64,000 nt of DNA from Holosporales bacterium (lineage in GTDB: Bacteria > Pseudomonadota > Alphaproteobacteria > JAJTHO01). Under the pieces are notes generated by a model, which saw nothing but the letters and a program-made list of their open reading frames with translations, ran no database searches and was not told the DNA's origin. The position numbers and the translations under genes were made by a program. Of the stretch, positions 3,149-47,231 are shown in pieces (the stretch's first letter is position 1; every line of letters begins with the position of its first letter). Where the stretch lies: positions 46,764 through 110,763 of the forward strand of contig JBKDWF010000040.1 in assembly GCA_046338525.1 (NCBI GenBank). The letters are read 5' to 3'.

Positions 3149-3174
3149 TACTACAAAAAATTAAGGAGAGAGCG

Positions 3175-4560: not shown

Positions 4561-4569
4561 AAGTGATTT

Positions 4570-6285
4570 ATGTCACAAATTTTATTGACATATTCTAATT
4601 TTTGGCGATACTGGATACATCGACAAGATCGAGGTAAACAGATCATGGATAAAAGCCCCGGCATTTTCGGGTTTCACAGTTTTTTGCTCATGGCTATTTT
4701 ATGCCTAGCGGTACTAGGCCTATCTGCCTGCGGCAAAGACGAACCGCCCAGCCCACAGCAACAACCGCAACAAGAGCAAAAAGCCGATACCACGCCAGTT
4801 CAGGATCTTCTCAACATTGCCAACCAACAAAAAGAGTCCCCAAAAAAACCAGCCCTCCTAAAAAATCTTACCGGCGACATCAATCTTGGTAGCGGCAATA
4901 CCATTGGCGACGATCAAATTCGTGATATTACTCTTGAAAATGAAGGCGATGAACCACTCACCATCAAAAACATCACCCTCAACCCCCAAAATGTAACGGA
5001 ATTTGTTCTCGGCGGTAATTGCCTAGCCGGAGTTGTGCTTGATCCTTCACGAAAAGCATGCCGCTTAGAAGTTACCTTCAGACCCGTTAACAACCAAGAA
5101 ATTTCCGCCAGCATTGTTATCACCCACACAGGACAAAATGACACTCTCATAATTCAACTTTCCGGTTCCGGTGCAGAAGCCTATATTCCCCCAGAAATTG
5201 CTCAAGAAAAACCCACAGAACCTACCCAACAGCAGATCGAAGCCATGCGTCTGCAGATGGAACGACGCCAGGGACGGCTCTCCAGCACCCCATCGCTCAA
5301 GGGGCAGCTCCGCAATCAATGGATTATGTCCGACGCCGACTACAAAGATATCGGTTACGGTAAAACAACAGCCACCTTTCCCATTGATAGAACGCGGATG
5401 ATTACCAGCGATCGCTATATTCCTGCTGTCTTGGAAAATACCATCAGTTCACAAATTCCCAGAGGCCGGGTTGTTGCCGTTATTGAAAACCACGTTTATT
5501 CTGCCGAAGGTAGAAACATCCTTATCCCAGCAGGTAGCCGCGCTATTGGCGAATACGATGGCTCTAATAAGGCCGGAACGTCACGCCTTACCGTTGTTTG
5601 GAACCGTATCATTCGCCCCGACGGTGTTGGTATAAATGTTCGCTCCCCTTCCGCCGATCCTATGGGGCGTGTTGGTTTAATTGGTGATGTTGACAATCGC
5701 CTTTTCGATAGATTCGGCGTACCTCTACTGATATCCGCCATTGGTGTTGCCGCCAATTACGCCGCCTCACCCTCACAGGTCACTACCACCACGACCACAG
5801 GAGCATTGGGCATTCTTGGAACATCCACTTCAGAAACAACTACTCGGGAAAATCAAGCCGCACGGCAGTTCAGTGCCGATGCAGTACAAAAATCCCAAGA
5901 GTTCATCCAAAACACAATTTCAATTCAACCAATTATTACTGTTCCAGCCGGAACACGCTTCGTTATACTTCCCACACAGGATATCGAATTCAAAAGCCCG
6001 CAGCTCCTCACCGTTGCGGGAGAAGCGGGCAATATTGTCAGCCAAGCGCAGGCTCTTATTCGCGCCCTACAACGCGGAGACATCGCTGGCGGCTCAGAGC
6101 GGCTTATTGAAATTATTGGCCAAGTATCAAAAGCCGGCGCAATGGGGCAGCCAGGATTCGATACGAGCGGCTCTCCTACTGGTGCTTTTGGTGTTGATAA
6201 CAGCGGCACCAATCAAGTAGGAGGTGCCGCAAATAGTTACGGGCCGGGCCGCTCCAATATTAACCCTCCTATAAATAAGCCATAA
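4570..6285 (+). CDS. virB10: Type IV secretion system protein VirB10 (TrbI family)
   Basis: It has a short N-terminus, one hydrophobic segment and a PQ-rich region. The C-terminal VirB10/TrbI domain follows: AVLENTISSQIPRGRVVAVIENHVYSAEGRNILIPAGSRAIGEY...RLTVVWNRIIRPDGVGINV...GDVDNRLFDRFG. The start could instead be the ATG at 4645, which has a GAGG RBS and an LSAC lipobox-like motif. Confidence 0.85.
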   Translation: MSQILLTYSNFWRYWIHRQDRGKQIMDKSPGIFGFHSFLLMAILCLAVLGLSACGKDEPPSPQQQPQQEQKADTTPVQDLLNIANQQKESPKKPALLKNLTGDINLGSGNTIGDDQIRDITLENEGDEPLTIKNITLNPQNVTEFVLGGNCLAGVVLDPSRKACRLEVTFRPVNNQEISASIVITHTGQNDTLIIQLSGSGAEAYIPPEIAQEKPTEPTQQQIEAMRLQMERRQGRLSSTPSLKGQLRNQWIMSDADYKDIGYGKTTATFPIDRTRMITSDRYIPAVLENTISSQIPRGRVVAVIENHVYSAEGRNILIPAGSRAIGEYDGSNKAGTSRLTVVWNRIIRPDGVGINVRSPSADPMGRVGLIGDVDNRLFDRFGVPLLISAIGVAANYAASPSQVTTTTTTGALGILGTSTSETTTRENQAARQFSADAVQKSQEFIQNTISIQPIITVPAGTRFVILPTQDIEFKSPQLLTVAGEAGNIVSQAQALIRALQRGDIAGGSERLIEIIGQVSKAGAMGQPGFDTSGSPTGAFGVDNSGTNQVGGAANSYGPGRSNINPPINKP

Positions 6286-6289
6286 TTTT

Positions 6290-7396
6290 ATGAGCACCCT
6301 CAACAACAGCACCGCCCTTGACAATCCCCTACTCCTAAGGGCTCTGGAACCTATTGAAAATTATTATTCTAGTTCTGCAGTAGAAGAAATCGCCATCAAC
6401 CGCCCTGGCGAAATCATGATCAAAAAACATGGCAAATCTGGATGGGAGACAGTAACAGCAGAAGAGTTAAACCTGCGAAGCCTGCACGCTTTGTGCCGTA
6501 TGCTTGCCAATGTTACCGAACAATCTTTTGATCTCAACGATCTTCCTATTCTTGCAGCGACCTTGCCGCAAGGTCATCGTTTTCAAGCTGTACTTGGCAC
6601 CAACGTACGCTACGAAATGGGGGATACCAATGGCGTGGCAATATGCATAAGACGCTTTGATCTTAATAAAAAATTTAGCCTAGATGATTTTGATTTACGC
6701 CCACAACAAAAAGCTAAAGAAGACCTGGTGCACCGGGGCGTTGAAAAGAAACGTTACAGCGATTTTCCTTACGAAGATTTGGTATCAGCCGTACAACATG
6801 GTGAAGCTGTATTAATATCCGGGGCAACGTCCACAGGAAAAACAACATTTTTAAATGCACTTATTGATTTTATTCCACGCGATCGGCGTATTGTTACCGT
6901 AGAAGATACTCGGGAAGTTGTCGTACCTCACCCTAATCGAGTTCACTTTGTTGTCTCGCGTACCGCTGGAGCCAATAAAATTGGCTATACTCATATTCTC
7001 GACACCGTTGTTCGCATGACTCCTGATGTTATTGTTTGCGGAGAGGTTTCCGTCACAAATGCCAAGAGCATTTACCGTCTGATGACAACGGGGCATTCAA
7101 ACTTTATGGCAACTATTCACGCCGATTCACCGGAAATGGCACTACGCGCGTTTTGGCAAAACCTTACTCAGACCGATCCAGAACTTGATGCCGAAGCCGC
7201 CGTCGAAATTCTCGCCCGCAGCTTTGGCCGGATTGTACAAATTGACCGCTCCTCCGGTAAGCGCATTATAACCGCTGTGGATGCGCCAAATCTGGTTAAA
7301 AAAGTCGCTCATGAAGCATCGGGCATGACAATGGTACAAAAACCTGCTAATACACCAAAAACAAGAGGAAAAAAAGATGGTTCTAAGCCCTTTTAA
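6290..7396 (+). CDS. virB11: Type IV secretion system ATPase VirB11
   Basis: Walker A GATSTGKTT, followed by VTVEDTREV, a Walker B region and a His-box. The N-terminal domain matches VirB11/TrbB traffic ATPases. Confidence 0.9.
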   Translation: MSTLNNSTALDNPLLLRALEPIENYYSSSAVEEIAINRPGEIMIKKHGKSGWETVTAEELNLRSLHALCRMLANVTEQSFDLNDLPILAATLPQGHRFQAVLGTNVRYEMGDTNGVAICIRRFDLNKKFSLDDFDLRPQQKAKEDLVHRGVEKKRYSDFPYEDLVSAVQHGEAVLISGATSTGKTTFLNALIDFIPRDRRIVTVEDTREVVVPHPNRVHFVVSRTAGANKIGYTHILDTVVRMTPDVIVCGEVSVTNAKSIYRLMTTGHSNFMATIHADSPEMALRAFWQNLTQTDPELDAEAAVEILARSFGRIVQIDRSSGKRIITAVDAPNLVKKVAHEASGMTMVQKPANTPKTRGKKDGSKPF

Positions 7397-9461
7397 CCGC
7401 CAAGATTACGCCGAACAGAAACAGGCAACACTATACCTTTTTCAAGTACTTATCGGCTCTATTATTGCCTTCTTTTTCTTTGTTCCCTTGGTCACAGCAA
7501 CGTACACATTTATTAAATTTGGTGTCTCCCAGAAAGTCGTTTTAGCGGTAGAACAATACTTTAGCATGGCCAAAAACCCCATTTCTTGGTGGCAATGGCA
7601 CCTAAACTGGATTACCACTATTCGCCATGGAAATCCTTATGATTGGAGATTTATTTTTTTACCCGTTGAGATTGTTACATCATTAGGCGGCACCTTGGTC
7701 GTTTTTGTCGGCTTTATGTTAAGCAATCCTTACACTTTTCTCGTCACGACTTTTGGAAACGCGCGCATGGCAACCAGCCGCGACATCGACAAGATGCAGC
7801 TCCTTAAAGGTTGGATCGTCGTTCTAGGCGAGTGTCAACGTAAATTTCTTAAGCTTCCTGAAACCTTATCCGTGTTGTGCGTCGCCCCCCCTGGAACAGG
7901 AAAGACAGTCGCTATTGTCGTACCTACTATCCTTACCTGCAATAATGTATCTATGATTATCAATGATGTTAAACCAGAACTGTTTGATATTACAAGCGGA
8001 TATCGCAGTCAACACAGTTTTTGCCTCAAACTAGAATGGGCTGCAACCGACAATCCGGAACGAGGCATTTTCTATCCCCGTTGGAACGCTCTCTCTCCTT
8101 CTTCTATGCCGCCCCCCGGCGCACAGCGCGACTTGTATATTGATCGCTTAGTGAATATTCTTATTGAAGAACCAAAAGGAAGTGCCGATCCACACTGGAC
8201 AAAACGTGGTCGAGCCGTACTGGCCGGATTTATCCACTATCTTTGTTCCAAAATAGAAGCGGGAAACTGGAATAATATCCCCCTGAACTGGCAAGGGAAA
8301 GAGCCAAGTATTCCCATGCTACTCGACTGGATGACCGAAGCCCAAATTTCTGCCCAAGAAAAAGTCGAGCAACTGCGTAAAACCAACCCAATGGCCGCCA
8401 TGAGCGCGGATCCCATGCGTGATCTGCTGACCGATGCCGTGAAAGAATGCCGTGCCGGTAATTACAGCAACCGCGCCATTTTAGAACTTACCGCGTTGGC
8501 TAATACACCTGATAAGGAACGTGGTTCTATCATGTCTACTATGGATGGGGGACTTGTCGTATTTAAAAACAAAGCTGTACGCGATCGTACCAGCCAAAGC
8601 GATTTTTCCTTCATGGACGTGCGCGGGATGCGCGATCCAGTCACGGGAGAATATAAACCAATGAGCATTTATGTCTGCGTGACTCAGCAAGACGCCAAAG
8701 CCTTGGGTGTTATCACCGGTCTTTTAGTCGAAGCTTTATCCGCTTGGCTTGTCGCCTATCCGCCAAAATCCACCACACCCGATGGTCAAAAAGTCGGACC
8801 CTTTCCGGCTTTGTTTGTCCTTGATGAGTTTCCGCAAATGCCTAAGCTAAGGGCTTTAATTGATGGTCCGGCTGTTGGTCGTGGGCAAAAAGTAAGTTTT
8901 TTAATGATTGGCCAAGACTTAGGACAAATCACAGCTGTATACGGAAAAGACGAAGTAGAAACTGTTATCTCAACCACCGCCGCCAAGGTTGTTCTTGCAC
9001 AAAACAACGAGACTACCGCAAAACGCTTTTCAGAAATGGTGGGTCAACGAACAGTAGAAACAGCATCGCGTTCTCGTACTATGGGGGTAAGCCGGGAAAC
9101 AAATCCATTTGCTGCCAACGTTCAACGCAGCTTACAAGGACAGCCGCTCCTCCGCCCCGAAGATTTTATGACCATCCCCAAAGGAAAGCACTACGTTCTT
9201 TACCAAGGATATCTGTCTAGGCCTATTTTATGCGATACACCAGCATATTATAAACACCCATTACTTAGAACCCTTGTGGACCCGAGCAAGGGTGGGAAAT
9301 ACAAAGCTGCTTCCCCTATGCCCGCTTTCATGACCGAACGCCGCAAAGCGGAATACTTAGCCGAACAAGAGCAAGAACATCTTAAAAAAGCCATGCAAGC
9401 CAGCCTAGAGATAGAAGAAACCCAAAAATCAAAACGCTTACCCATAAATTCCGGGGGCTAA
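7377..9461 (+). CDS. virD4: Type IV coupling protein VirD4/TraG family
   Basis: N-terminal TM helices, Walker A VAPPGTGKTV, a Walker B-like LFVLDEFPQM and the length (694 aa) fit T4CP. It overlaps the virB11 3' end by 20 nt. Confidence 0.9.
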   Translation: MVLSPFNRQDYAEQKQATLYLFQVLIGSIIAFFFFVPLVTATYTFIKFGVSQKVVLAVEQYFSMAKNPISWWQWHLNWITTIRHGNPYDWRFIFLPVEIVTSLGGTLVVFVGFMLSNPYTFLVTTFGNARMATSRDIDKMQLLKGWIVVLGECQRKFLKLPETLSVLCVAPPGTGKTVAIVVPTILTCNNVSMIINDVKPELFDITSGYRSQHSFCLKLEWAATDNPERGIFYPRWNALSPSSMPPPGAQRDLYIDRLVNILIEEPKGSADPHWTKRGRAVLAGFIHYLCSKIEAGNWNNIPLNWQGKEPSIPMLLDWMTEAQISAQEKVEQLRKTNPMAAMSADPMRDLLTDAVKECRAGNYSNRAILELTALANTPDKERGSIMSTMDGGLVVFKNKAVRDRTSQSDFSFMDVRGMRDPVTGEYKPMSIYVCVTQQDAKALGVITGLLVEALSAWLVAYPPKSTTPDGQKVGPFPALFVLDEFPQMPKLRALIDGPAVGRGQKVSFLMIGQDLGQITAVYGKDEVETVISTTAAKVVLAQNNETTAKRFSEMVGQRTVETASRSRTMGVSRETNPFAANVQRSLQGQPLLRPEDFMTIPKGKHYVLYQGYLSRPILCDTPAYYKHPLLRTLVDPSKGGKYKAASPMPAFMTERRKAEYLAEQEQEHLKKAMQASLEIEETQKSKRLPINSGG

Positions 9462-9555
9462 TCCATTAAAATGAAAACACATAATTTGTTCATTCCTCTT
9501 GACATAAACCACCATCTTTCCAACAAAAGAAAAACTTGTTTTTAGGATTTTTACC

Positions 9556-9933
9556 ATGGCACAACGTTTATACACTAAATCCCACGAATGGATTGAAGTT
9601 AATGGCGATACAGCCACCGTTGGCATTACTGATTATGCCCAACACGCATTAGGCGATGTTGTCTATGTTGATATACCCGCAGCCGGAAAAATCGTTACAG
9701 CCGGCGCACCTGCAGCAGTAGTGGAATCAGTAAAAGCCGCCAGTGAGGTTTATGCACCAGTTTCTGGAACAATTACAGAAAGTAACGCTACTATTCAACT
9801 TGATCCATCTCTGGTCAACCGTGCTGCTGATAACGACGGTTGGTTTTTTCGTCTAAAAATTGCTAATAATAATGAACTTAAAAACCTACTCGATGAAACG
9901 GCTTATAAAAATTTATTATCAAGTTTATCATAA
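9556..9933 (+). CDS. gcvH: Glycine cleavage system H protein
   Basis: YTKSHEWIEV...GITDYAQ...VESVKAASEVYAPVSG carries the lipoyl-lysine motif and is typical of GcvH (125 aa). Confidence 0.85.
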   Translation: MAQRLYTKSHEWIEVNGDTATVGITDYAQHALGDVVYVDIPAAGKIVTAGAPAAVVESVKAASEVYAPVSGTITESNATIQLDPSLVNRAADNDGWFFRLKIANNNELKNLLDETAYKNLLSSLS

Positions 9934-9939
9934 GATTTT

Positions 9940-10506
9940 TTGGAGGCTACTTTGCCCACTTTAACTTTGGCTGATTATTTTACCCTAACCAGACTTGTTG
10001 CGGTTGTACCGTTACTTTTATTCTGGTGGCTTCCAGGGGGTGCATGGTTAGCCTTTGCTGTGTTAGCTGTTGCCTGTCTTACAGATTTTGCCGACGGAAT
10101 TATTGCTCGTCATCGCAAGGAGATTTCCCCATTTGGAACCATGATCGACCCTATTGCGGATAAAGTCTTGGTTATCTCTGCTTTATTAATGCTCGCCTTA
10201 AGTGGGATTCTGACCCTAATAGGGTTGGTGGCGTTTTGGATTATCTTATGGCGGGAAATTATCGTTTCTGGCCTACGAGAATACTTGGCTCAGCGCGGCT
10301 TATCTATGCCAGTAACCCCCATGGCGAAATACAAAACTGCTGCGCAGATGCTTGCCCTGTCCGGGTTATTTTTTGAACACGCTTGGCGCGGCGGTAACGC
10401 TGGCGCGTGGCTGTGGAGCGAAGGCGGCTTACTGCTGGCCACCGTCCTGACAGTATGGACGGGCATTGCTTATGGTAAGGCGACGATTGAGGCGTTGAAA
10501 GGGTAG
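9940..10506 (+). CDS. pgsA: CDP-diacylglycerol--glycerol-3-phosphate 3-phosphatidyltransferase (CDP-alcohol phosphatidyltransferase family), TTG start
   Basis: CDP-OH_P_transferase motif DFADGIIARHRKEISPFGTMIDPIADKVLV in a multi-TM protein. The start is an in-frame TTG, GGAGG-preceded. Confidence 0.7.
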   Translation: MEATLPTLTLADYFTLTRLVAVVPLLLFWWLPGGAWLAFAVLAVACLTDFADGIIARHRKEISPFGTMIDPIADKVLVISALLMLALSGILTLIGLVAFWIILWREIIVSGLREYLAQRGLSMPVTPMAKYKTAAQMLALSGLFFEHAWRGGNAGAWLWSEGGLLLATVLTVWTGIAYGKATIEALKG

Positions 10507-10518
10507 GCCACCTCTATT

Positions 10519-10556
10519 AATACCATTTTGCAATCAATTGATTGTAAAATGGTATT
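10519..10556. terminator. Bidirectional hairpin between convergent pgsA and rsmB
   Basis: A 17-bp inverted repeat, aataccattttgcaatc / gattgtaaaatggtatt, with loop aatt and one mismatch. It overlaps the rsmB stop codon. Confidence 0.45.
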
Positions 10557-11847
10557 AGTTACGCTTCCACGCTGCCACAAAAAAACCATCTGTTCCATGT
10601 TGATGGGGCGTAAGCTGAAGACTATTTTCTTTAATCCCAACCAACTCACCCAACCCTGCCCTGCTGAATGCTTCTTTCATCACCAGCGGTGAAAATCCTA
10701 CTTCTACCTCATTAAACCAAGCAACTTGGGCATCATTTTCCTCACCAAGGAGTGAGCACGTCGCGTACCACAATTCTCCGCCCGGTTTTACTAATCGACC
10801 CGCCTGACTAAGAATAGCACGTTGCTTTGCTACTAATTCTTGAACATCTGCCGCCGTATAACGAAAACGGGCATCCGGGTTGCGTCGCCAAGTGCCAGTA
10901 CCTGTACACGGTGCATCAACTAAAACGCGATCGAATTTTCCGGCATTGCTAACGCACCAGCGATCTTCCATCAATCGCACCGTAGCGTTATGCACCCCCG
11001 CCTTGCGAATGCGGCGTTTGGCTTCCTCTAACCTCTTTGAAATAATATCAAGGGATACCAGCCTCCCCTTGTTTTCCATACTTGCAGCTAGAGCCAAACT
11101 TTTTCCCCCTGCACCGGCACAAAAATCAAGCACCGCCATTCCCGACTTTACCCCCACCAAGAGGGCAGCAAGCTGAGCCGCCTCATCCTGAATTTCCGCA
11201 TGCCCATTTTTCAAAGCAGGCAGACGATCAAAAGCAAAACGTTGACCTATCCTAATCCCCAACGGCGAGTGCGGCGTGGGCTGAGCGGACAAACCCGATG
11301 CCCTAACCTGCTCCAGCAACGCCATCCTATCAATGTGCAAGGTATTGACCCGCAAATCTACCGGTGCTTGTTTTTGTAGTGCATCAAGCAATATTGGCAG
11401 GCAATCCCCATAGCGCGCTTCCAACGTACTTGCCGCCCAGTCCGGACATTCTCCCTTCACCGCTAGCGGCATACTCACCTCGGCTTCGGTATCCACATGG
11501 AGACGTTCCAACTTTCGCCGCTCTCCGCCCGTTAGAGGTGCTGGAGCATATTGACTACCATTATAAATATTGGCCAGCGCTGCTGGCGTCTGACCCTCTA
11601 CAATAAGATGATACGCAAGAAGCCCCAAACGCGGCGTCCAATCTGCACCAGCCCGCACCAGCCTCCAAGTCAAGCGTACTCGGTACCGAAGAACACCATA
11701 CACTAATGCAGCAAGATGCTGCCTATCTCGGCTTCCTGCAAAACGATGTCTTCTACCCCAATGATGTAGCTCCCGATCCACAGGAACACCACCATGCGCA
11801 GCGGTAAGAATCTCTAAAGCCGCACTGGCCAACGCTGCCGGGGTCAT
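10555..11847 (-). CDS. rsmB: 16S rRNA (cytosine967-C5)-methyltransferase RsmB/Sun
   Basis: NusB-like N-terminus. SAM-binding motif DFCAGAGGKS. Motifs DRVLVDAPCTGTG and a PC/TC catalytic cysteine. Confidence 0.8.
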   Translation of the reverse strand: MTPAALASAALEILTAAHGGVPVDRELHHWGRRHRFAGSRDRQHLAALVYGVLRYRVRLTWRLVRAGADWTPRLGLLAYHLIVEGQTPAALANIYNGSQYAPAPLTGGERRKLERLHVDTEAEVSMPLAVKGECPDWAASTLEARYGDCLPILLDALQKQAPVDLRVNTLHIDRMALLEQVRASGLSAQPTPHSPLGIRIGQRFAFDRLPALKNGHAEIQDEAAQLAALLVGVKSGMAVLDFCAGAGGKSLALAASMENKGRLVSLDIISKRLEEAKRRIRKAGVHNATVRLMEDRWCVSNAGKFDRVLVDAPCTGTGTWRRNPDARFRYTAADVQELVAKQRAILSQAGRLVKPGGELWYATCSLLGEENDAQVAWFNEVEVGFSPLVMKEAFSRAGLGELVGIKENSLQLTPHQHGTDGFFVAAWKRN

Positions 11848-12938
11848 GATAGCACCGCCAGCACATCGGCATCTTTTACGTCCCGCCGTTCAACGGCGTT
11901 TCCAATAGAATTAAGCAAAATAAATGTTTTTTTACCACCAACGGTTTTTTTATCGCTTTCCATTACTTTTAATAAATCATGGGGTTTTAAAGTAAAGCTA
12001 GGCAATAAGTCTTTTAAAGTACGAGGATACTCAAGACCATCGAGATGATCCTCAATCGCCACTACTTGATGTGCTTCTAACATGTCTAAACGAGCCGACA
12101 ACCTTGCCGCAAGCCGAATTCCATACGCTACTGCTTCGCCATGAAGAAGAACACTGTTGTTATAACCAACAGCAGCTTCTAATGCATGACCAAACGTATG
12201 ACCAAAATTAAGCAATGCCCGAACTCCAGCTTCACGCTCATCTTTGCTAACGATTAAAGCTTTAGTACGACAGCTATGGGAAATAGCTATTTTTAAAGCT
12301 TCATCATCTCCGTCCAGTATTGCTTGGGCATGACTTTGGCACCATGCAAAAAAACTTGCATCATCAATAAGACCGTATTTTAAAATTTCCGCGTAACCAG
12401 CGCGACGTTCCCGCATGGGTAGTGTCTTTAAGCAATCCAGATCAATAATAACCCGCACCGGTTGGTAAAATGTTCCTATTAAATTTTTACCGGCATGAGT
12501 ATTGATGGCTGTTTTTCCGCCAACAGAACTATCCACTTGGGCTAAAAGAGTTGTAGGAATTTGAACAAAAGGAATACCCCGCAGGGCTATACTGGCCACA
12601 AAACCGCCCAAATCACCAACAACCCCTCCACCTAATGCAATGAGAAGCGTCTTACGATCAATAGGCCAACCTAGGATTTTTTCCAAAACTTCTTGTAAAA
12701 CGGTAAAACTTTTTGCTTCTTCTCCCGCAGGGACAATAAGAGGAAGAATAGCCTTGTTACCAAGAATTTTCTCAATAGTTTTTTGGTATAAAGGAGCAAC
12801 ATTTGTATCGCTAAGTAAGATAATTTTTTTGGTTACATCTAACCATGGTGTAAGCTCTTTTTCTAAATGTGCTAAGCTACCGTTAGAAATCGTAATGTCA
12901 TAACGATGATGCTGTGTTTGTACAGAAATAGAAGTCAT
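11844..12938 (-). CDS. aroB: 3-dehydroquinate synthase
   Basis: GGGVVGDLGGF, a KTAINT motif and HGEAV..GIR: NAD- and metal-binding motifs of AroB (364 aa). Confidence 0.9.
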   Translation of the reverse strand: MTSISVQTQHHRYDITISNGSLAHLEKELTPWLDVTKKIILLSDTNVAPLYQKTIEKILGNKAILPLIVPAGEEAKSFTVLQEVLEKILGWPIDRKTLLIALGGGVVGDLGGFVASIALRGIPFVQIPTTLLAQVDSSVGGKTAINTHAGKNLIGTFYQPVRVIIDLDCLKTLPMRERRAGYAEILKYGLIDDASFFAWCQSHAQAILDGDDEALKIAISHSCRTKALIVSKDEREAGVRALLNFGHTFGHALEAAVGYNNSVLLHGEAVAYGIRLAARLSARLDMLEAHQVVAIEDHLDGLEYPRTLKDLLPSFTLKPHDLLKVMESDKKTVGGKKTFILLNSIGNAVERRDVKDADVLAVLS

Positions 12939-13041
12939 CAGTAGAGTATAACCACTTTATTTTTTGAGAAAACTTAATAACACTCTTCTTCCTATAATTT
13001 TTTTTAGAAATGGTTGTAGTAGTAAGTAGTGCCCATAAAAG

Positions 13042-13272
13042 TGGGGATAACTTTTTTATCTTTTTTATACACAAAGTTTTCCACAGTTATTTGTATGAAA
13101 ATACTTTTTAAAATAAGGAATTAAAAATTATCCCCAAGGATTAAAGCACTTTTGTTCACAGTGTTTTTTTTACCAAAAACTCATATAAGAAGAATAGAGG
13201 AGTGCGTATAGTTTTGCTATACTCTTAAAATAGGCCTGTTATCCACAATCTATCCACAAGCCTATGGATAAT
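13042..13272. promoter_or_regulatory. Cluster of six DnaA-box-like 9-mers in AT-rich intergenic DNA (candidate oriC or DnaA-regulated region)
   Basis: One perfect box: TTATCCACA at 13239-13247. Five one-mismatch boxes: tggggataa at 13042-50 (reverse); TTTTCCACA at 13076-84; TTATCCCCA at 13128-36; CTATCCACA at 13250-58; tatggataa at 13263-71 (reverse). Confidence 0.45.
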
Positions 13273-13999
13273 TATAATTTGCTACAAAAACCTTTAGTAG
13301 CGACAACACCACAATCGCTAAAATTGCTATTCCCACAAGGATTTGCGCTGGAACAATAATAAAAAATATTTGTACCTGTGGCATGAGGCGTGACAACATT
13401 CCAACAGCTATATTGAAAATAATTCCTAAAATAAGCAGTGGTGCAGCTAATTGAACACCGATATGAAAAGCATCAGCGAAGATGCGGCTTAGATGATTGC
13501 TTGCATCAATAATATTGAATGTTGTACCAATAGGGAAAGAAATATAGCTTTGCGCCAAAGCCTTAAAGGTGTTGTGGTGAAGTTCAGCGGTAAAAATAGC
13601 AGTCACCCCAGCCATCGTTAAAAACACGGAAAATAAGTTGCCCTGTTGCCCAAGGCTTGGGTTTAACAGTGAGGCATTTGACATCCCTGTTTGTAAACCA
13701 ATAATAGAACCGGCAACATCCAAGGCACTGAGCAGAAATTTTGCCATTAATCCAAAAAAAACGCCAATGGCAATTTCTTGAATTATATAAACAAATGTTT
13801 GTAGACCACTTTCTGGAACAGAAGGAAGTGGGGTAAGAGGCCAAAGAACTAAGCTGAAAAGGATAGCAAAGGCTAGGCGCACTTTTGCAGGAACAAATAT
13901 TTGATCCAAGCCAGGCATTAAAGAAATAAGGCTCCCTACCCGACAAAAAGTCATTAAAAAAGCAAATGTTTCCTGCGGAAGAAGATTTAGCAGAGACAT
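13262..13999 (-). CDS. fliR: Flagellar biosynthetic protein FliR
   Basis: 245-aa polytopic membrane protein. Its N-terminus TFAFLMTFCRVGSLISLMPGLDQIFVPAKVRLAFAIL is typical of FliR. It lies directly downstream of fliQ. Confidence 0.85.
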   Translation of the reverse strand: MSLLNLLPQETFAFLMTFCRVGSLISLMPGLDQIFVPAKVRLAFAILFSLVLWPLTPLPSVPESGLQTFVYIIQEIAIGVFFGLMAKFLLSALDVAGSIIGLQTGMSNASLLNPSLGQQGNLFSVFLTMAGVTAIFTAELHHNTFKALAQSYISFPIGTTFNIIDASNHLSRIFADAFHIGVQLAAPLLILGIIFNIAVGMLSRLMPQVQIFFIIVPAQILVGIAILAIVVLSLLKVFVANYNYP

Positions 14000-14000
14000 C

Positions 14001-14267
14001 CTAACTGCCTTGAATCATGCGTTGGAAAAGTTCCAATGTGAATGATTGTAATGTGTTAAACATAAAAGGAAGAAACAACGCAGTTGCGGCAAAAACAGCA
14101 ATGACTTTTGGTACAAAAGACAAGGTGCTTTCTTGAATTTGGGTAAGAGCCTGAAACAAAGATATCACAAGTCCAACAATAAGAGTGATAATCAGCAGCG
14201 GCGCCCCAACCTTGAGGGTCGTCCAGAGCGCTTGTTGGGTAATCTCTAAAACATCACTGAAATTCAT
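14001..14267 (-). CDS. fliQ: Flagellar biosynthetic protein FliQ
   Basis: 88 aa with two TMs. The FliQ signature is QQALWTTLKVGAPLLIITLIVGLVISLFQALTQIQE. Confidence 0.85.
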   Translation of the reverse strand: MNFSDVLEITQQALWTTLKVGAPLLIITLIVGLVISLFQALTQIQESTLSFVPKVIAVFAATALFLPFMFNTLQSFTLELFQRMIQGS

Positions 14268-14327
14268 GGTTAAAGACTTAAAAGCAAAGAGTTGCCAAAT
14301 AGTAAATAACTGGGGAAATGTAAGATT

Positions 14328-15242
14328 ATGACGGTTCTTCTTTTACAGTGTTTAGTGCCTTTATATATTTATGTTTTATTAGGGTTTTATGCTGGGCGCG
14401 TTTTAAAAATAGACAGACAACAGGTGGCGCGCTTAGTGATTTATCTGATTGCACCGTTGATGTTTTTAGGGTCGGTGAGCATTGCGCCATTGGATATTAG
14501 GTATTTACTGTTACCAGTTGTTACTTTTTTTCTGGCAGTTGTTATGAGTGGATTGATGTTTTTTTTGTCGGGAAAGGTTTGTCCTGATGCTCGCCGTTAT
14601 CTTATCACTTCAGCATCTGGCACTGGAAATACAGGGTATTTTGGTGTCCCAGTATTTTTGAGTTTTGCTCAACCGGAATCATTGGGTGTGTATATGCTGG
14701 CAATGCTGGGGTTCACCTTTTTTGAGGCTAGTATAGGTTATTATCTTATTGCACGGGGCAATTATTCGGTGCGGGATAGTGTACGACGATTGTTCACATT
14801 ACCCACGTTATATGCAGTGGGGCTGGGGCTGTTGGTTAATGCGAGTGGGGCAGGTATTCCTGCTTGGATGTTGACGGGTCTTGAGCAGATACGCGGAGCC
14901 TATGTAGTACTTGGTATGATGTTGGTGGGTGTGGGATTATCTGCCGTTCGGCGACTTCAAGTTGATGTTCCTTTTACCTCAATGTTATTGTTGATGCGAT
15001 TTATTTTTTGGCCGCTGTTGGTAATGGGAGTGTTGGTTTTTGATTCTATATTTTTAGGGTTTTTTGATTCATTGGGGCGTACAGTTTTATGGGTGTTAGC
15101 GATTGTGCCGTTGGCGGCAAATACAGTGGCTTTTGCTAGTGAAATGAACCTGCATCCAGAAAAAACAGCTACGGCGGTAGTGATTAGCACAGTGTTAGCG
15201 GTGCTTACCGTGCCGCTTATTGCACCATTACTTTTCTTTTGA
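14328..15242 (+). CDS. AEC (auxin efflux carrier / malate permease-like) family transporter
   Basis: 304-aa polytopic membrane protein with two repeated five-TM halves typical of the AEC/Mleu family. Confidence 0.7.
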   Translation: MTVLLLQCLVPLYIYVLLGFYAGRVLKIDRQQVARLVIYLIAPLMFLGSVSIAPLDIRYLLLPVVTFFLAVVMSGLMFFLSGKVCPDARRYLITSASGTGNTGYFGVPVFLSFAQPESLGVYMLAMLGFTFFEASIGYYLIARGNYSVRDSVRRLFTLPTLYAVGLGLLVNASGAGIPAWMLTGLEQIRGAYVVLGMMLVGVGLSAVRRLQVDVPFTSMLLLMRFIFWPLLVMGVLVFDSIFLGFFDSLGRTVLWVLAIVPLAANTVAFASEMNLHPEKTATAVVISTVLAVLTVPLIAPLLFF

Positions 15243-15250
15243 TGGGGTCA

Positions 15251-15347
15251 TATACTCCTTGCACATGAAGAATGTGCAAGGGATTCGCTCAAGCGCCGCG
15301 CGGGCTGTACCACTCGCAAGCTTAGATAGGAAGTCTTCATGTGCGAG
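15251..15347. repeat. Structured ~100-bp repeat, copy 1 (second copy at 49651-49757)
   Basis: The 70-nt core tatactccttgcacatgaagaatgtgcaagggNttcgctcaag.gccgcgcgggctgtacc.ctcgcaag is about 95% identical to the second copy. It has an internal hairpin (ttgcacatg/catgtgcaa) and long-range complementarity (gcacatgaag...cttcatgtgc). It lies between convergent genes. Confidence 0.6.
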
Positions 15348-15834
15348 TAGATTCGGAAATTTTTTCCCCCCAAGACGCAACGAGTTTTTTTTGTATATTA
15401 ATATTGTTTTTTATAGCCGTTTCGTGACGCCAAATAAAAATGGCTCGAATAAGTTGTGGTAGAACAATAATTATACCCCATCCAAAGCCAGCAGCACACA
15501 AGATTCCAAGCCATTCACGGGCATCATTGAGAACATCAAACCCTGCCGCTAGGCTCCATCCTAAAGGAAGAACCTTAATGAGGGTTGGAGCAACACCAGC
15601 AGCATTCATAATAAGAACGGATAATGCTATACGTTTATTAGGATGTTTATCCCATGACCAAGCTACTAAACCGGGCAACATACCCAGTGTACAAAGGAGA
15701 ACTCCAGAAAGAGATATTAAAGATATACAGATAACAATAAGTCCGTAAAGAAATGTTATCTTTCCTGTCCACGAATTTTTTTCTGATTGTTTTTTGGCTT
15801 TAAGTGTTTCTTTTGATTTATCTAGGGTTACCAT
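15337..15834 (-). CDS. Small polytopic membrane protein (165 aa), hypothetical; downstream partner of the kinase-fold protein
   Basis: 3-4 predicted TM segments. It is four nt downstream of the 681-aa gene on the same strand. It is AT-rich like its partner. Confidence 0.55.
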   Translation of the reverse strand: MVTLDKSKETLKAKKQSEKNSWTGKITFLYGLIVICISLISLSGVLLCTLGMLPGLVAWSWDKHPNKRIALSVLIMNAAGVAPTLIKVLPLGWSLAAGFDVLNDAREWLGILCAAGFGWGIIIVLPQLIRAIFIWRHETAIKNNINIQKKLVASWGEKISESTRT

Positions 15835-15838
15835 GATT

Positions 15839-17884
15839 TTACATCCTCAATACGAAAAAAAAAATCGCAAAAAATAGAGCGACAATCGGAGAAAATCGTG
15901 CTGTTTTTAAAGCAACAAGGGCATTCATGTCGCGTAAAACATGGCGATGCAGAAGAATTTTTTTATCAAGTCTTACGTATTCGTTGCGTGCATTTTCAAA
16001 TTCGATAGAATCTTTCTGGCGTTCTTGGGGACTATCAATAATATCCAAAATTTCTGCAATATATCCATTTTCGGCAACCTGCTCAAGGCTTTTTCTAATC
16101 CGTGCTCGACGTGGCTCACTGTTAAAATAGTCAAGATTCTGTTTCAATGTATTACTAAACCAAGTTGTTATTTTTGGAAAAGATTTGTTACCATATTTTT
16201 GATTAATTAAATGAAAAATACGAAGCAAGGCAACGTGAGATATCCAAGGTTGGCTCGTATCGTTTAATCGATGGAAATACTCTTCTTTGAGAAATTTACA
16301 GCGGCTGGCAATAAAGGCAGCAAGATGTCGATCGATTACAGAATTTTTATAATTTTGATGGGCAGTTTTAGCAAGCGTAGCCTCAAGAGCTATCAAGATA
16401 TCCTCAATCTCTAAGACTATTGTATCTTCAAAAAGAGGGCTTAAGCATGGCACACGTGTATTGAGTTCATAGATACATCGTTCAAATCCATAGCCAAGAC
16501 CTTGATTTATTATAACTCCTTTGAGAAGTTCTAGAATTTTATCAAGGCGACTTTGTTCTTCAGAAACAATATCTTGAGCGCGCAACCAAGCAGATGCAAG
16601 TCCATATCGGATAATATCTACACAAAACTGTCGTTTTTGATTATCATAAAGTCCTGTGAGAAACAGACCACCAAGTCCAGCTACGTCAATGGCAATACCT
16701 TGATAAAACAAGGGAGCTTCGGGGTAGAGCGCAATTAAAGCTTTTGCACTGGTAACGTTGAGCGGTTGGTTAGTGCGCGTAGCAACGGCAAATATTTCAT
16801 GTAAGGAATTAGCAGTATCGTCGGATTCAAGACTTCGACGAAGCCAGATATTTATTTTATTATCTTGGAGAATTTTGACAGAACCACCATCTTTAGTTTT
16901 TCCTAACGCATAGACAAGAGAAGGAAGATTTATATAGTTCATATTATTAAATACCAACGCGCGACCAGCTTTTTTGGCGAATGTCGGTACCTTAGGAACA
17001 ATAGTTTGCCCCCCTAACCATTGTAATATATCATTAATTGTCCACCGATTATTTGGATTGTCATGAAGGCATCCTTTAAGAAAGTCCATGGTTTCTTTTG
17101 AAAAACGTTTGTCACCGATGAAGGTAGCTACGGTACCGTTGGTTGTTTTTTTAAAGAGGAGGCTGTCCAATGTAAGATTTTCAACGGGATTTCCCCCCTC
17201 TAAAAGATGAAGACTAAGCAAGCCAAGATTGTAAATGTCTTCTTGAAAGCTAGTGGTGTTTTTTTTATAAGCAGGTTCTACAAGCATCATTTCGATAGGC
17301 TCAACCGTAAAAGGAATCCGCCATCCAGGATGCCCCATAAAGCACTCACCTAAAACGATGGATGTTTTTGTATGATCTGTGTAAAAGATATTGCTTGGAG
17401 ACAATGCTCTGTAAAATAAAGAATTTTTATCAAGTTCGGCAAATGTATTGATAATGGGTCGAATAAAGCGTTCGCGAACATCCAATTCTGTCCAAGGTGT
17501 GATTTTTTGTTTCCCGTTGTCGGGAAATACTGACGATCCAGGTAAAGGAGTGATAACAAATAAAAGGCTGCCAAAACCGGCACCAAGTGTCTTTTTTTCA
17601 GATGCTTCAGGGTGAATAATAATTGTATCTGATGTTTTTTTGAGTTGTTCGATCATATCGTAGCGTGGCGACATTAATTTATCGGCCATAAAAGCAACCA
17701 TCAAACGTTCTTCGTTCAGTAAATCCGTTGCTTTAAAGGCAAAAACTTGACCGAAAGATAGGTCGTGCATAAATTGAGGGATAATATCCCCCATATGCAC
17801 AACATACCGATCATTCAGAATAATCCGATTTTTTTTACGGCCATCGATGCCGTTTTGAGATTGAGGCTCTTTTGTTGAATTCAC
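15839..17884 (-). CDS. Protein-kinase-fold protein with degenerate catalytic motifs (predicted pseudokinase/atypical kinase), C-terminal TM anchor
   Basis: Kinase subdomains are recognisable in canonical order and spacing: a degenerate Gly loop DLSFGQV; VAFM in place of VAIK (Lys to Met); a catalytic loop YRALSPSNIFY (cf. [HY]RDLKPENIL, Asp to Ala); GEC in place of DFG; VEP in place of APE; DIYNLGLLSLHLLEG (cf. DxWSxG); R280. About 370 aa of helical sequence follow. The protein ends in a hydrophobic tail, FSPIVALFFAIFFFVL. Confidence 0.6.
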   Translation of the reverse strand: MNSTKEPQSQNGIDGRKKNRIILNDRYVVHMGDIIPQFMHDLSFGQVFAFKATDLLNEERLMVAFMADKLMSPRYDMIEQLKKTSDTIIIHPEASEKKTLGAGFGSLLFVITPLPGSSVFPDNGKQKITPWTELDVRERFIRPIINTFAELDKNSLFYRALSPSNIFYTDHTKTSIVLGECFMGHPGWRIPFTVEPIEMMLVEPAYKKNTTSFQEDIYNLGLLSLHLLEGGNPVENLTLDSLLFKKTTNGTVATFIGDKRFSKETMDFLKGCLHDNPNNRWTINDILQWLGGQTIVPKVPTFAKKAGRALVFNNMNYINLPSLVYALGKTKDGGSVKILQDNKINIWLRRSLESDDTANSLHEIFAVATRTNQPLNVTSAKALIALYPEAPLFYQGIAIDVAGLGGLFLTGLYDNQKRQFCVDIIRYGLASAWLRAQDIVSEEQSRLDKILELLKGVIINQGLGYGFERCIYELNTRVPCLSPLFEDTIVLEIEDILIALEATLAKTAHQNYKNSVIDRHLAAFIASRCKFLKEEYFHRLNDTSQPWISHVALLRIFHLINQKYGNKSFPKITTWFSNTLKQNLDYFNSEPRRARIRKSLEQVAENGYIAEILDIIDSPQERQKDSIEFENARNEYVRLDKKILLHRHVLRDMNALVALKTARFSPIVALFFAIFFFVLRM

Positions 17885-18075
17885 GCTGAAATTAACCTTA
17901 ATTAGAATGAATAAAGATTAGGGTATTATAAAAGTACTAACCTTTGGTAATCGCTCATTGGTGGCTTGAGGTTAATAGAGATACCCTACAATTTACATTA
18001 TGCCCCTTGCTGTTAAGATTTGCCTGGCGTAAGGTGCGCTTCTATTTCAAACAGTAGAACAGCAAAGGGTGTGTC

Positions 18076-18582
18076 ATGGCAGGTTCGGTTAACAAAGTCA
18101 TATTGTTAGGAAATGTTGGAAAAGACCCAGAAATTCGAGCGCTTAGCAATGGGCAAAAGGTATGTAATCTTTCTTTGGCTACCAACGAAACGTGGCGTGA
18201 CAAGGCCACTGGCGAAAAGCGTGACAAAACAGAATGGCATCGTGTAGTTATTTTTAATGATAAAATCGCTGAGATAGCTGAAAAATATGTAAAAAAAGGC
18301 TCAAGAGTTTATATAGAGGGTGAGTTGCAAACCCGCAAGTGGACAGATAATGCCGGAGTTGAGCGGTACTCTACCGAGATTGTGCTGCAACGCTTTCGCG
18401 GTGAATTGACCCTTCTGGATGCGCCGCGAAGTGGCGAAAATACCAGTGAATACTCCGGTAACGGTGGAAATGCCAGCTTCGGTCAGGTACGCGGCGGTAA
18501 TTCTGTTGCAAGCAATAGGGCACCTGCTTTCGGTGCCACAGCAGATGCCCCGGCACTGATGGATGATGAAATTCCTTTTTGA
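18076..18582 (+). CDS. ssb: Single-stranded DNA-binding protein
   Basis: OB-fold N-terminus (NKVILLGNVGKDPEIR...TEWHRVV.F). Gly/Asn-rich linker. Acidic tail DDEIPF. Confidence 0.9.
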   Translation: MAGSVNKVILLGNVGKDPEIRALSNGQKVCNLSLATNETWRDKATGEKRDKTEWHRVVIFNDKIAEIAEKYVKKGSRVYIEGELQTRKWTDNAGVERYSTEIVLQRFRGELTLLDAPRSGENTSEYSGNGGNASFGQVRGGNSVASNRAPAFGATADAPALMDDEIPF

Positions 18583-18730
18583 TCTTAATGCTTATCTTGG
18601 GTAGAAGTGCGTTGATATCTTTGCTGCTTGAGCAAAGTTGAGATATCAAAACAAAGGCAAAAAATCATAAAACTTCTTGCACGATAGAGTGCTACAAGCT
18701 AGCACAAACATAGATTGTAGAGGTGAAGTT

Positions 18731-19396
18731 ATGCGTGTTTTTCTTTGTCTCGTTGTTACGTTGTTTAGTTTTTTTTCGATTCCGGCAATGGCACAAACCA
18801 CTGTCGCAGAACGCTTGTTAATTAATGCAGAAATAACCGCACGAAAATTGCTTAATAATGAAAATTTCTCCGATGCTCGTGATATGTTGCGCCGTAGTCG
18901 GGCCGTTATTATTGTTCCAAATTTTTATCGTGGTGGTTTTATTTTAGGAGCTGCCGGTGGTACAGGGGTAATTTTAGCCAAAGATAACAGCGGTACTTGG
19001 GGGTATCCGGGCTTTGTAAATATAGGCAGCTTAAGTGCTGGATTACAGATTGGTTTTTCGGGGTCTGAACTCATTGTATTTGTCATTACGAACGATGGCC
19101 TTTCTTCCATCATTAATAACCAAGTCCGTATTGGCGGCAATGCCGGACTTTCGATCGCCACGTTTGGTGGGGATGTCGGTGGAGCTAAAGGCCTGACTAC
19201 TGATGCAGATTATATTATTTATGCCAAATCAGCAGGGCTGTACGCGGGGTTATCTCTTGAAGGTTCTGTTATTGAGGCTCGCCCCGATATTGCGCGGGAT
19301 TTTTATGGTGAGTCTGCGGCTTTATACCCGATTTTAATTGATAAAAAATACACCGACAGCAGGGCTGATAAGTTGCGGGATATATTGGTGCAGTAG
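18731..19396 (+). CDS. Secreted SYLF/Ysc84 (DUF500) domain protein
   Basis: The start was chosen at the GAGGTGAAG-preceded ATG. Signal peptide MRVFLCLVVTLFSFFSIPAMA. Gly-rich repeats (GAAGGTGVILAKD...LQIGFSGSEL...GGNAGLSIATFGG) are typical of the SYLF lipid-binding domain. Confidence 0.7.
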   Translation: MRVFLCLVVTLFSFFSIPAMAQTTVAERLLINAEITARKLLNNENFSDARDMLRRSRAVIIVPNFYRGGFILGAAGGTGVILAKDNSGTWGYPGFVNIGSLSAGLQIGFSGSELIVFVITNDGLSSIINNQVRIGGNAGLSIATFGGDVGGAKGLTTDADYIIYAKSAGLYAGLSLEGSVIEARPDIARDFYGESAALYPILIDKKYTDSRADKLRDILVQ

Positions 19397-19615
19397 TGGC
19401 GGGGCACCTTTATTAACCCATTTATGGGGCGATTGCCGTTTCTAGCACAGTCTTATAAGGAGGGTATTAGAGGTGGCGGCAGCGGTTTAATTGCAAAATG
19501 TTTTTGATTTTATTTTGTTTTCTATGGTCACTGACCGATTTTTGAAAATAAGTAGCTTTTAATCATGCTTTATGATAGAGTCTTTTTAATTTATTTTATA
19601 AGAGAGACGTACCTC

Positions 19616-20206
19616 ATGACTGAAAATAAAGTCCAACAACAGCCCCTCCACCTTGAAGACATTGCAGCAATTGCCGTTGCTCTATTTGATGATGAACAAC
19701 GCCTTGCTTTTGTCAGAAAAATAAACCCGGTCAAGGTGACGGAAACGTCCCTTAGTCTTTTAAATTTGCCCCAATCCATTGAACTTTCCGCTCGGGTTGC
19801 CGCCCACGGCATTGAAGGGCGCTATCTGGGTTTAATCATCGGTATTGACGAGATTGACAATGGCATTCTTGATTATAAAGTTACCGGGAAATCAGAATAT
19901 CTTGAAATTATTGTGGAAGAAATGGCTTCTCGGGGCAATCTTCCTTTTGAACAAGACCCAAATTTTCACCGCGTTTCGGCCATCATCACAGCAGCGCAAA
20001 TGGTGGTCAACGATCTAGGACCAGAAGACCCTGTGGCACAGGGAATTCTCAAACGTGGTCAAGAGTTGGCCAGCCTTACTCCGGGTACTAGGGAACGAGC
20101 CGAAGCGACCAAAGATTTTCTTGATGATATGTTCGAATACCTTGAACGCAATTTGCCCGGCGGCAAAAAAGACACCGCAGGGACACCAAAAAAGAAAATC
20201 AAGTGA
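19616..20206 (+). CDS. Hypothetical acidic protein (196 aa), translationally coupled to coaD
   Basis: ORF with an AGAGAG RBS. Its stop TGA overlaps the coaD GTG start (GTGA). No family recognised. Confidence 0.5.
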   Translation: MTENKVQQQPLHLEDIAAIAVALFDDEQRLAFVRKINPVKVTETSLSLLNLPQSIELSARVAAHGIEGRYLGLIIGIDEIDNGILDYKVTGKSEYLEIIVEEMASRGNLPFEQDPNFHRVSAIITAAQMVVNDLGPEDPVAQGILKRGQELASLTPGTRERAEATKDFLDDMFEYLERNLPGGKKDTAGTPKKKIK

Positions 20207-20718
20207 AAACAGGAATTTATCCTGGCACTTTTGATCCACCTACCAATGGGCATTTCGATATTATAAGCCGCGCGGCGCGGCTGGTGGATCGTCTGATTGT
20301 GGCGGTTGCCCCTAATGCAGGAAAAAATCCGTTGTTTACCCCTGCGGATCGGGTGTCCATGCTTGAGGAACACCTGCCAAACTTAAAATTGGTTAGCCTT
20401 CCTCAAGTACAGATGATGCGCGGGCTGTTAGTGGATTTTGCCCACGATCATGATGCTACCGTTATCTTTCGTGGACTACGTGCGGTGGCAGACTTTGATT
20501 ATGAATTACAGATGGCCATGATGAACACACGGCTTGCCCCTCATATTGAAACGGTTTTTCTTATGGCTTCGGAAACCCATCAATTTCTGGCATCCAAGTT
20601 AGTTAAAGAAGTTGCTTTTCTGGGCGGCGATATCAGTTCTTTCGTCCCTGAAAGTATACAGCGGCATTTATCCGCCAAGCAAAGCTTCATTCAAGCGGCC
20701 GCTGTCGGCCAGTCATAA
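20203..20718 (+). CDS. coaD: Phosphopantetheine adenylyltransferase
   Basis: The N-terminus, read as MKTGIYPGTFDPPTNGHFDIISRA with the GTG start, carries the (H/T)xGH nucleotidyltransferase motif. It is 171 aa. Confidence 0.9.
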   Translation: MKTGIYPGTFDPPTNGHFDIISRAARLVDRLIVAVAPNAGKNPLFTPADRVSMLEEHLPNLKLVSLPQVQMMRGLLVDFAHDHDATVIFRGLRAVADFDYELQMAMMNTRLAPHIETVFLMASETHQFLASKLVKEVAFLGGDISSFVPESIQRHLSAKQSFIQAAAVGQS

Positions 20719-24083: not shown

Positions 24084-24086
24084 AAT

Positions 24087-26240: not shown

Positions 26241-26254
26241 GGTTTTACTTAAAC

Positions 26255-46834: not shown

Positions 46835-47231
46835 TGCCGGTTAACTATCCTGCTGTGGCAGTATTTTAGCAAGGAAAAAATTGCCTTTGTTGGTTTTTTA
46901 TTAATAAAAATCAAGCATTTCAACGCTCTTTTCGTGGGTTGGCATGGGCTATGCTTTATTAAGGGTGATAACCGCAGGGTTTATCATGAATAGCCCTATA
47001 TTAATTTCATTTTTTGGCCAATTGGTGTCGTCAGATAGTTGCTCATCCCCATCAATGGACAGATGCCCCTAGGTGGTTCTTGGTAGAAAAAGCATAATAC
47101 ATTGTATTATATGTTAATTTTTTAAAATAAACCGAAAGGTTGATTTTTTATTTACTTTTTCTTCAAAATAAAATAAGATTTATAAATAAAATTAAAAATA
47201 AATAGTGATTTTTTTTATAAAGGAGGTTGCA

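Follow-up and report, generated by a model that had tools for sequence, protein, structure and literature searches.

The replication systems closest to the locus considered here are the DnaA-dependent oriC regions of Escherichia coli and Bacillus subtilis and, among alphaproteobacteria, the Caulobacter Cori and Rickettsiales-type origins, reported by Brassinga (2002) and Ioannidis (2007; PMC1914354). Partition and gid genes usually lie near origins, and a COG1253-type gene is a boundary gene of Wolbachia and Ehrlichia origins. Dense clusters of DnaA boxes are also found at loci that are not origins, namely, datA and DARS1/2 of E. coli and the DBCs of B. subtilis; to our knowledge, no locus of this non-origin kind has been described in Alphaproteobacteria. 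The Caulobacter/Rickettsiales-type origin is characterized by a hemE, COG1806 or COG1253 boundary and by CtrA and IHF sites; origins with varied boundary genes have already been documented in the class, as has a scarcity of CtrA sites among its intracellular members (PMC1914354). On the side of duplex opening, the basal unwinding system (BUS) consists of two co-oriented DnaA boxes directly adjoining a series of trios (PMC10721633), and can be searched for with a rule that calls for a box with at most two mismatches, a spacer of 0–16 nt and an uninterrupted series of at least three NAN trios of the correct polarity (PMC8287927).

Here we describe a probable origin at a 323-bp intergenic gap (12939..13261) between fliR and aroB, located in a 64-kb stretch of DNA (64,000 nucleotides, hereafter the window) from an uncultured Holosporales alphaproteobacterium that is known from metagenome contigs only. 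By the ORF map and family matches, the gap is non-coding and ~28% GC, compared with 38–62% GC in its surroundings, and is one of two stretches of the window with the lowest GC content. It lies upstream of aroB and downstream of fliR (Table 1). Four independent assemblies besides the window span the fliR–aroB junction near-identically; the junction is therefore real and no assembly artefact. The genes of the window form an ordinary chromosomal set that comprises a virB8–virD4 operon, gcvH, pgsA, rsmB, aroB, fliQR, ssb, and coaD, followed by trpB, purL, glnE, purF, nadE, cydAB, gltX, tgt, and bioB, with nth, prfC, recJ, and pdhAB also encoded. An AAA_14/DUF4143 ATPase gene (34000–35190) stands amid the housekeeping genes, opposite an antisense 346-aa ORF without a family match.

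Table 1. Coordinates of the fliR–aroB gap features, the boundary genes and the rearranged block, in window numbering; "relative" refers to the diverged genome that shares the junction
Feature	Coordinates	Strand	Remarks
aroB (3-dehydroquinate synthase)	11844..12938	-	TIGR01357, 367 bits; boundary gene on the left, reading away from the gap
Candidate DNA unwinding element (favoured)	12985..13012	.	AT-rich, …CTTCCTATAATTTTTTTTAGAAAT…; just beyond the trio-like run; putative unwinding
Trio-like run	13016..13030	+	Invariant GTAGTAGTAAGTAGT with TAG TAG TAA (13017–13025), 16 nt 5′ of box 1
DnaA box 1	13042..13050	-	TTATCCCCA; + strand reads TGGGGATAA; faces the trio-like run; relative has TTATCCCCG at the homologous place
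DnaA box 2	13065..13073	+	TTATACACA; relative: TTATTCACA
DnaA box 3	13077..13085	+	TTTTCCACA; 3 bp past box 2; relative identical
Alternative candidate unwinding element	13087..13127	.	Lowest duplex stability within the gap; separates box 3 from box 4
DnaA box 4	13128..13136	+	TTATCCCCA; relative: TAATCCCCA
Weak box	13152..13160	+	TTGTTCACA, 2 mismatches; not kept in the relative
DnaA box 5	13239..13247	+	Perfect TTATCCACA; relative identical
DnaA box 6	13250..13258	+	CTATCCACA; 2 bp past box 5, co-oriented; relative: TTATGCACA
DnaA box 7	13263..13271	-	TTATCCATA; overlaps the fliR stop and last codons; partly kept in the relative
fliR	13262..13999	-	TIGR01400, 169.4 bits vs cut-off 168.6; right boundary gene, ends at the gap
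Inverted block	9556..17884	.	8.3 kb: gcvH, pgsA, rsmB, aroB, gap, fliR, fliQ, Mem_trans, 165-aa gene, kinase

Searches for another identity of the gap returned little. It matched no Rfam family (a sub-threshold chance match only, E = 0.84), contained no credible ORF (the small ORFs are AT-rich noise), gave nothing convincing in a scan for consensus promoters and terminators, and had zero similarity to the 72,556 plasmids of a plasmid database. With no noncoding RNA family, ORF or plasmid similarity to account for it, no other explanation of the gap was found. The genome itself is compositionally very patchy. GC content is very uneven between adjacent genes, from ~38% in a kinase-like gene and its neighbours (15839–17884) to ~61% across trpB, purL, and glnE (22902–28906), and a second extreme AT-rich intergenic region of the window (46835–47204, ~25% GC), which contains the least stable 30-mers, sits between divergent genes, one of the HlyD family and one unknown, and holds zero DnaA boxes.

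The most distinctive property of the gap is its array of DnaA boxes. A search of both strands for 9-mers within one mismatch of TTATCCACA found seven between 13042 and 13271. The earlier note on this DNA, made from the sequence alone, had called a cluster of six; the cluster stands, and the count becomes seven. Its other descriptions of the array agree with our results: a single perfect box at 13239–13247 (our box 5, the sole perfect TTATCCACA in the 64-kb window), a real tandem pair TTATCCACAatCTATCCACA, boxes on both strands (1 and 7 on the minus strand, the others on the plus), and fliR and aroB as flanking genes, which the TIGR01400 and TIGR01357 matches bear out. The ~25% GC that it gave for the region is revised to a measured 29% for 13042–13272. 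That the density, which it held to be unusual for an ordinary promoter, is far beyond chance is clear from 5000 dinucleotide-preserving shuffles of the region, which contained on average 0.08–0.11 boxes and at most 2, none reaching 7; nowhere else in the 64 kb does a 231-bp segment contain two or more. A weighted box score over 300 bp is 16.5 at the gap and 4.0 at the next-best place in a 91.5-kb composite of the region (see below), and stays at or below 4.5 across ~150 kb of unrelated loci. No second cluster exists in the 91.5 kb, a span that includes gidAB–parAB. The gap thus holds a box cluster well above chance in non-coding DNA, as is expected of an oriC. Within it, two 40-nt segments (13042–13081 and 13097–13136) are 70% complementary and make up an imperfect inverted repeat, with boxes 1 and 4 as its outer ends.

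In its layout the array resembles the R1/DUE region of E. coli oriC and box6/7 of B. subtilis incC, with TTATCCACA-type boxes on both strands and pairs 2–3 bp apart. Unlike E. coli oriC, it is devoid of GATC sites and 13-mer repeats. The likeness to Rickettsiales-type origins lies in an AT-rich intergenic region that exceeds 300 bp and contains DnaA boxes, whose binding sites are more conserved than their surroundings (PMC1914354); unlike in those origins, the boxes are more numerous (7 vs 2–5) and closer to the E. coli consensus. As a dense, conserved, non-coding box cluster between unrelated housekeeping genes, the gap also resembles E. coli datA and DARS1/2 and the DBCs of B. subtilis.

The boxes can be compared with one diverged relative, on which the conservation of the junction rests. 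It carries the fliR–gap–aroB arrangement in loci L020–L023, including NCBI MAG GCA_046318675.1 (a 175-kb contig; locus L021 below), with AroB 75% and FliR 90% identical to those of the window. Neutral divergence is extensive: across seven flanking genes, window and L021 agree at 49% of four-fold degenerate sites, near saturation. Box positions are identical at 49/54 (91%), compared with 173/269 (64%) of the non-box positions of the gap (Fisher p = 8e-5). Because box identity so exceeds that of the rest of the gap and of the neutral sites, the DnaA boxes are under purifying selection. Other invariant runs fall at 12969–12984, 12993–13004 (inside the AT-rich stretch next to the trio-like run) and 13016–13030, and the most conserved 120 bp (12969–13055) lie directly upstream of aroB.

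Wider sampling added little. Four contigs with identical AroB have nearly the same gap as the window and hence give no footprinting information. Scans of genome and metagenome contigs with AroB found only distant relatives (36–53% identical), none with an aroB-adjacent box cluster, and GTDB species representatives included no close relative; the informative relatives were reached through protein searches and the contigs behind them. A box cluster near aroB was likewise absent from more distant AroB relatives at 45–62% identity. In one of these, L016 (AroB 62% identical), both the box cluster and a skew minimum are absent from 21 kb, which is uninformative on the position of the origin in its own lineage. 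There, at 9463–12427, aroK–aroB is followed by a COG1253-type CNNM/CBS/CorC gene, and gidA–gidB–parA–parB (17526–21116), with a perfect parS TGTTTCACGTGAAACA at 19534, lies within 10 kb of aroK–aroB–COG1253. The relatives of the ParA-like protein (L039–L043) stand in unrelated gene contexts and carry no information on the gap.

At the aroB end, the gap has an arrangement suggestive of duplex opening. Read on the plus strand, it consists of the AT-rich stretch 12985–13012, GTAGTAGTAAGTAGT, a G, CCCATAAAAG, and TGGGGATAA, that is, box 1; a 16-nt spacer containing GCCC separates this box from the TAGTAGTAA run. The terminal box thereby faces a short GC-containing spacer, 5′-TAG/TAA-3′ triplets and AT-rich DNA, as in the E. 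coli and B. subtilis origins. The polarity is that of the E. coli DUE-R/R1 junction, …TAT TAG GAT CGCACTGCCC TGTGGATAA, an established oriC sequence that was verified against 5425 E. coli genomes. In both the window and L021, TGGGGATAA, the 16-nt spacer and TAGTAGTAA conform to the BUS search rule, whose specificity is low (~3% chance per box, ~20% over 7–8 boxes). Unlike a canonical BUS, with its usual spacer of 10–13 nt, the gap has one of 16 nt, the maximum of the rule, and just three in-frame trios, next to a single box and not a co-oriented pair: at the aroB end the trios are faced by box 1 alone. A second arrangement reminiscent of an unwinding system stands at the fliR end (13239–13279), where the pair 5/6, both boxes in one orientation, is separated by 9 nt from four minus-strand NAN triplets inside the last codons of fliR. 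A nearest-neighbour stability scan gave −28.6 kcal/mol for the 30-mer 13102–13131, so that AT-rich, easily melted DNA adjoins the boxes, on sequence, both here and at 12985–13012. We favour the aroB side as the putative place of duplex opening; the aroB promoter may also lie within 12985–13012.

For the long-range strand composition, the window was extended to a 91.5-kb composite (L033 reversed + L027 + window + L030 reversed), in which L027 is from the strain of the window (1 mismatch in 11.5 kb) and L033 from a strain ~96% identical. Cumulative GC skew along the composite has its global minimum at 12726, ~200 bp from the gap. In the 20.7-kb locus L021 the minimum (10818) falls inside the homologous gap (10739–11058), which is both the lowest-GC spot and the sole box cluster of that locus; skew is uniformly negative over 10 kb on its left side and uniformly positive over 10 kb on its right. 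Since genes on either side are mostly on the plus strand in L021, gene direction does not explain the switch. In the lineage of the window, too, the sign of the third-codon-position skew does not depend on the strand of the gene: on the right side of the gap, plus-strand skew is +0.11 in plus genes (n = 13) and +0.09 in minus genes (n = 30), and from −0.9 to 12.9 kb it is strongly negative for genes of both strands (virB10 −0.49, rsmB −0.49). AT skew flips at the gap as well, in the opposite sense to GC skew, in both genomes. The type IV secretion system (T4SS) operon (777–9461) has a strongly negative third-position GC skew on its coding strand, from −0.27 to −0.49.

A cumulative GC-skew minimum is thus found at the locus in composite and relative alike, and the gap coincides with a switch in strand composition, as does a canonical DnaA-dependent oriC. 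The local switch is solid. At long range the profile is blocky, with no clean V, and the left arm is unlike that of a clean origin. The right arm stays positive for ~43 kb; the negative left arm spans only ~14.5 kb, covering an aconitase-like gene, virB8–virD4, gcvH, rsmB, and aroB. Beyond these, the composite is flat to slightly positive at −19 to −2 kb and negative again at 56–66 kb. A skew-inverted block abutting the gap would produce the same local minimum.

The two genomes differ in gene order around the gap. The 8.3-kb block of Table 1 is inverted as a unit relative to L021 (6227–14395; Holosporales MAG GCA_046318675.1); the gap divides it into arms of 3.4 and 4.6 kb, which makes the inversion roughly symmetrical, and the skew V is retained in both genomes. 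In the relative the order is virB…virD4, kinase…fliQ fliR, gap, aroB rsmB pgsA gcvH, argD argF hsp33…aat parB; in the lineage of the window it runs argD…aat parB parA gidB SIS gidA ParA-like, ruvX…glyA…ispE…, and then virB8…virD4, gcvH pgsA rsmB aroB, gap, fliR fliQ…kinase, ssb…. The virB block remains on the negative-skew side in both. An inverted block with retained skew is the pattern expected of symmetric inversions centred on an origin. The argD…parB block, directly right of the inverted block in the relative and 22–39 kb left in the window lineage, has changed sides without inversion, which may explain part of the flat skew left of the window.

Origin-associated genes are present in this neighbourhood. 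In the window lineage, gidA–gidB–parA–parB is found 22–29 kb to the left, and its transcription runs away from the gap; in the relative, parB is 9.7 kb from the gap and the par operon points towards it. With its alphaproteobacterial host, GC-skew shift and nearby gidAB–parAB, the locus resembles Caulobacter Cori and Rickettsiales-type origins (PMC1914354). The operon in L033 (1530–6973, roughly −9.9 to −15 kb on the numbering of the window) encodes a ParA-like protein (220 aa), gidA, SIS, gidB, parA, and parB, and thus includes two ParA-family ATPases and an extra SIS-domain gene; a parS consensus, allowing up to 3 mismatches, was not found in the L033-side sequence around it. The T4SS operon is Rickettsiales-style (virB8, virB9, a 474-aa gene, virB10, virB11, virD4) and points towards the gap in both genomes. 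Gene orientation as a whole converges on the gap, and of the ~78 genes in the 91.5-kb composite only about a third run in the direction of forks that would leave it; co-orientation of genes with departing forks, a statistical tendency and no strict requirement, is therefore not seen here. The convergent genes prompted consideration of a terminus, which is ruled out by the origin sign of the skew switch and the nearby gidAB–parAB, and which would leave a conserved array of DnaA boxes unaccounted for.

Several marks of described origins are missing. The boundaries are fliR and aroB and not, as in Rickettsiales-type origins, hemE with COG1806 or COG1253, none of which was found in the annotated 91.5 kb, and unlike canonical origins the gap adjoins neither dnaA nor gidA. 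None of dnaA, dnaN, hemE, and parAB is among the genes of the window, and neither dnaA nor hemE occurs across the annotated composite. Unlike Caulobacter/Rickettsiales-type origins, the gap also has no CtrA, IHF or GANTC motifs: CtrA (TTAA-N7-TTAA) has no match in the gap of either genome even with one mismatch, at which shuffles give 2.5; IHF, in two published consensus forms including WATCA-N5-WTR, has none in either gap; and the same holds for GANTC, GATC, and parS. A TrcR-family (PF06242) gene at 21740–22285 suggests that the organism has at least some of the cell-cycle regulators of alphaproteobacteria, despite a gap without CtrA sites.

Taken together, the gap is best explained as the chromosomal replication origin (oriC) of this Holosporales bacterium, because it combines a unique, selected array of seven boxes, an AT-rich spot, a GC and AT switch shared by two genomes of different gene order, a position at the pivot of an inversion and the proximity of gidAB–parAB. 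We assign this reading a probability of about 0.72. The earlier note had proposed a candidate origin, and its proposal is upheld in part: selection on the boxes, the skew switch in two genomes, the gap-centred inversion, nearby gidAB–parAB and the lack of a competing cluster in 91.5 kb speak for it, and the short left skew arm and the gene orientation against it. The note's other option, a dnaA promoter, is rejected, as dnaA is absent from the window and its extensions. It was right that the site is not hemE-adjacent, at least within 91.5 kb, where hemE is absent; the CtrA and IHF sites that it named as worth a search did not turn up in the gap.

Binding of DnaA, the site of unwinding and origin firing at the gap are predicted from sequence features. 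DnaA would occupy the high-affinity boxes, namely, the perfect box 5 and boxes 1, 3, 4, and 6, and would oligomerise onto closely spaced neighbours in the pairs 5/6 (2 bp) and 2/3 (3 bp). Starting at box 1, an ATP-DnaA filament may then grow along the conserved TAG-TAG-TAA run and melt the AT-rich DNA next to it (~12985–13012), allowing helicase loading, and forks would depart from the gap in both directions.

Two of the competing explanations can be set aside with some assurance. A moderately AT-rich consensus in a region of 29% GC might accumulate box-like words by chance and without function; this is hardly credible, and we consider it refuted, because none of the 5000 composition-matched shuffles reached 7 boxes (maximum 2) and box conservation (91%) is far above that of neutral sites (49%). 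Nor is it at all probable that the gap is an oriV with DnaA boxes, still active or left as a remnant, that belongs to an integrated plasmid or conjugative element tied to the adjacent T4SS genes. The virB8–virD4 genes do lie 3.5 kb away in a block with a skew of its own, and farther out the region encodes ssb and an orphan ParA-like ATPase; on the other hand, no rep gene, iterons, relaxase or integrase was found near the gap, none of the 72,556 plasmids is similar to it, and the housekeeping genes that flank it (aroB, rsmB, pgsA, gcvH, fliQR) stay attached to it when the block inverts relative to the T4SS genes. The virB8–D4 layout, moreover, resembles the chromosomal Rickettsiales-type system.

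A more substantial alternative, which we nonetheless consider unlikely, is that the cluster is not an origin and serves DnaA titration or modulation in the manner of datA, DARS or DBC loci, a DnaA-controlled aroB–rsmB promoter, or both, with oriC elsewhere, for instance, at hemE. DnaA-box clusters of similar density occur outside oriC in B. subtilis, mostly in origin-proximal positions. Conserved boxes are probably functional binding sites, which alone does not place the start of replication at the gap; the most conserved 120 bp could contain the promoter of aroB, directly downstream; and a non-origin cluster beside a skew-inverted block would fit both the shortness of the left arm and the convergence of genes. 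The absence of hemE, dnaA, CtrA, and IHF, typical of alphaproteobacterial origins (criteria from PMC1914354), points the same way. Against this reading, datA/DARS/DBC loci are not known to match a skew switch or to pivot an inversion, and the gap does both: GC and AT skew change sign within a few hundred bases of the cluster in two rearranged genomes, the inversion is centred on it, and it is the only one in the 91.5 kb around gidAB–parAB. The IHF site that datA requires is absent, as is any IHF or Fis site such as datA and DARS2 need, and the consensus promoter scan of the gap found nothing. Seven boxes over 230 bp with an AT-rich, trio-flanked end are origin-like, not promoter-like. A non-origin cluster leaves unexplained the coincidence of the switch, the inversion pivot and the sole cluster. 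In the more particular version of an origin-proximal DnaA reservoir or regulatory locus, conserved as such (datA/DARS-like, or a DnaA switch on aroB–rsmB) and with a local skew switch produced by block rearrangements, the proposal is doubtful.

If the gap is indeed oriC, the replication origin would be fixed for an uncultured, intracellular lineage of alphaproteobacteria within the Holosporales. This would provide a zero point for the ordering of MAG contigs, a reference point for coverage-based (peak-to-trough) growth-rate estimates in metagenomes and a reference for interpreting genome rearrangements in Holosporales. The known picture of bacterial origin function is unchanged by the finding. 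The untypical features of the gap, as its sequence presents them, are its fliR/aroB boundaries, its E. coli-like boxes and its lack of recognisable CtrA, IHF or CcrM sites. It would thus be an added case of an alphaproteobacterial origin without a hemE boundary or such sites, with an E. coli-like array of consensus boxes instead, and would bear on the reach of CtrA control of initiation within the class.
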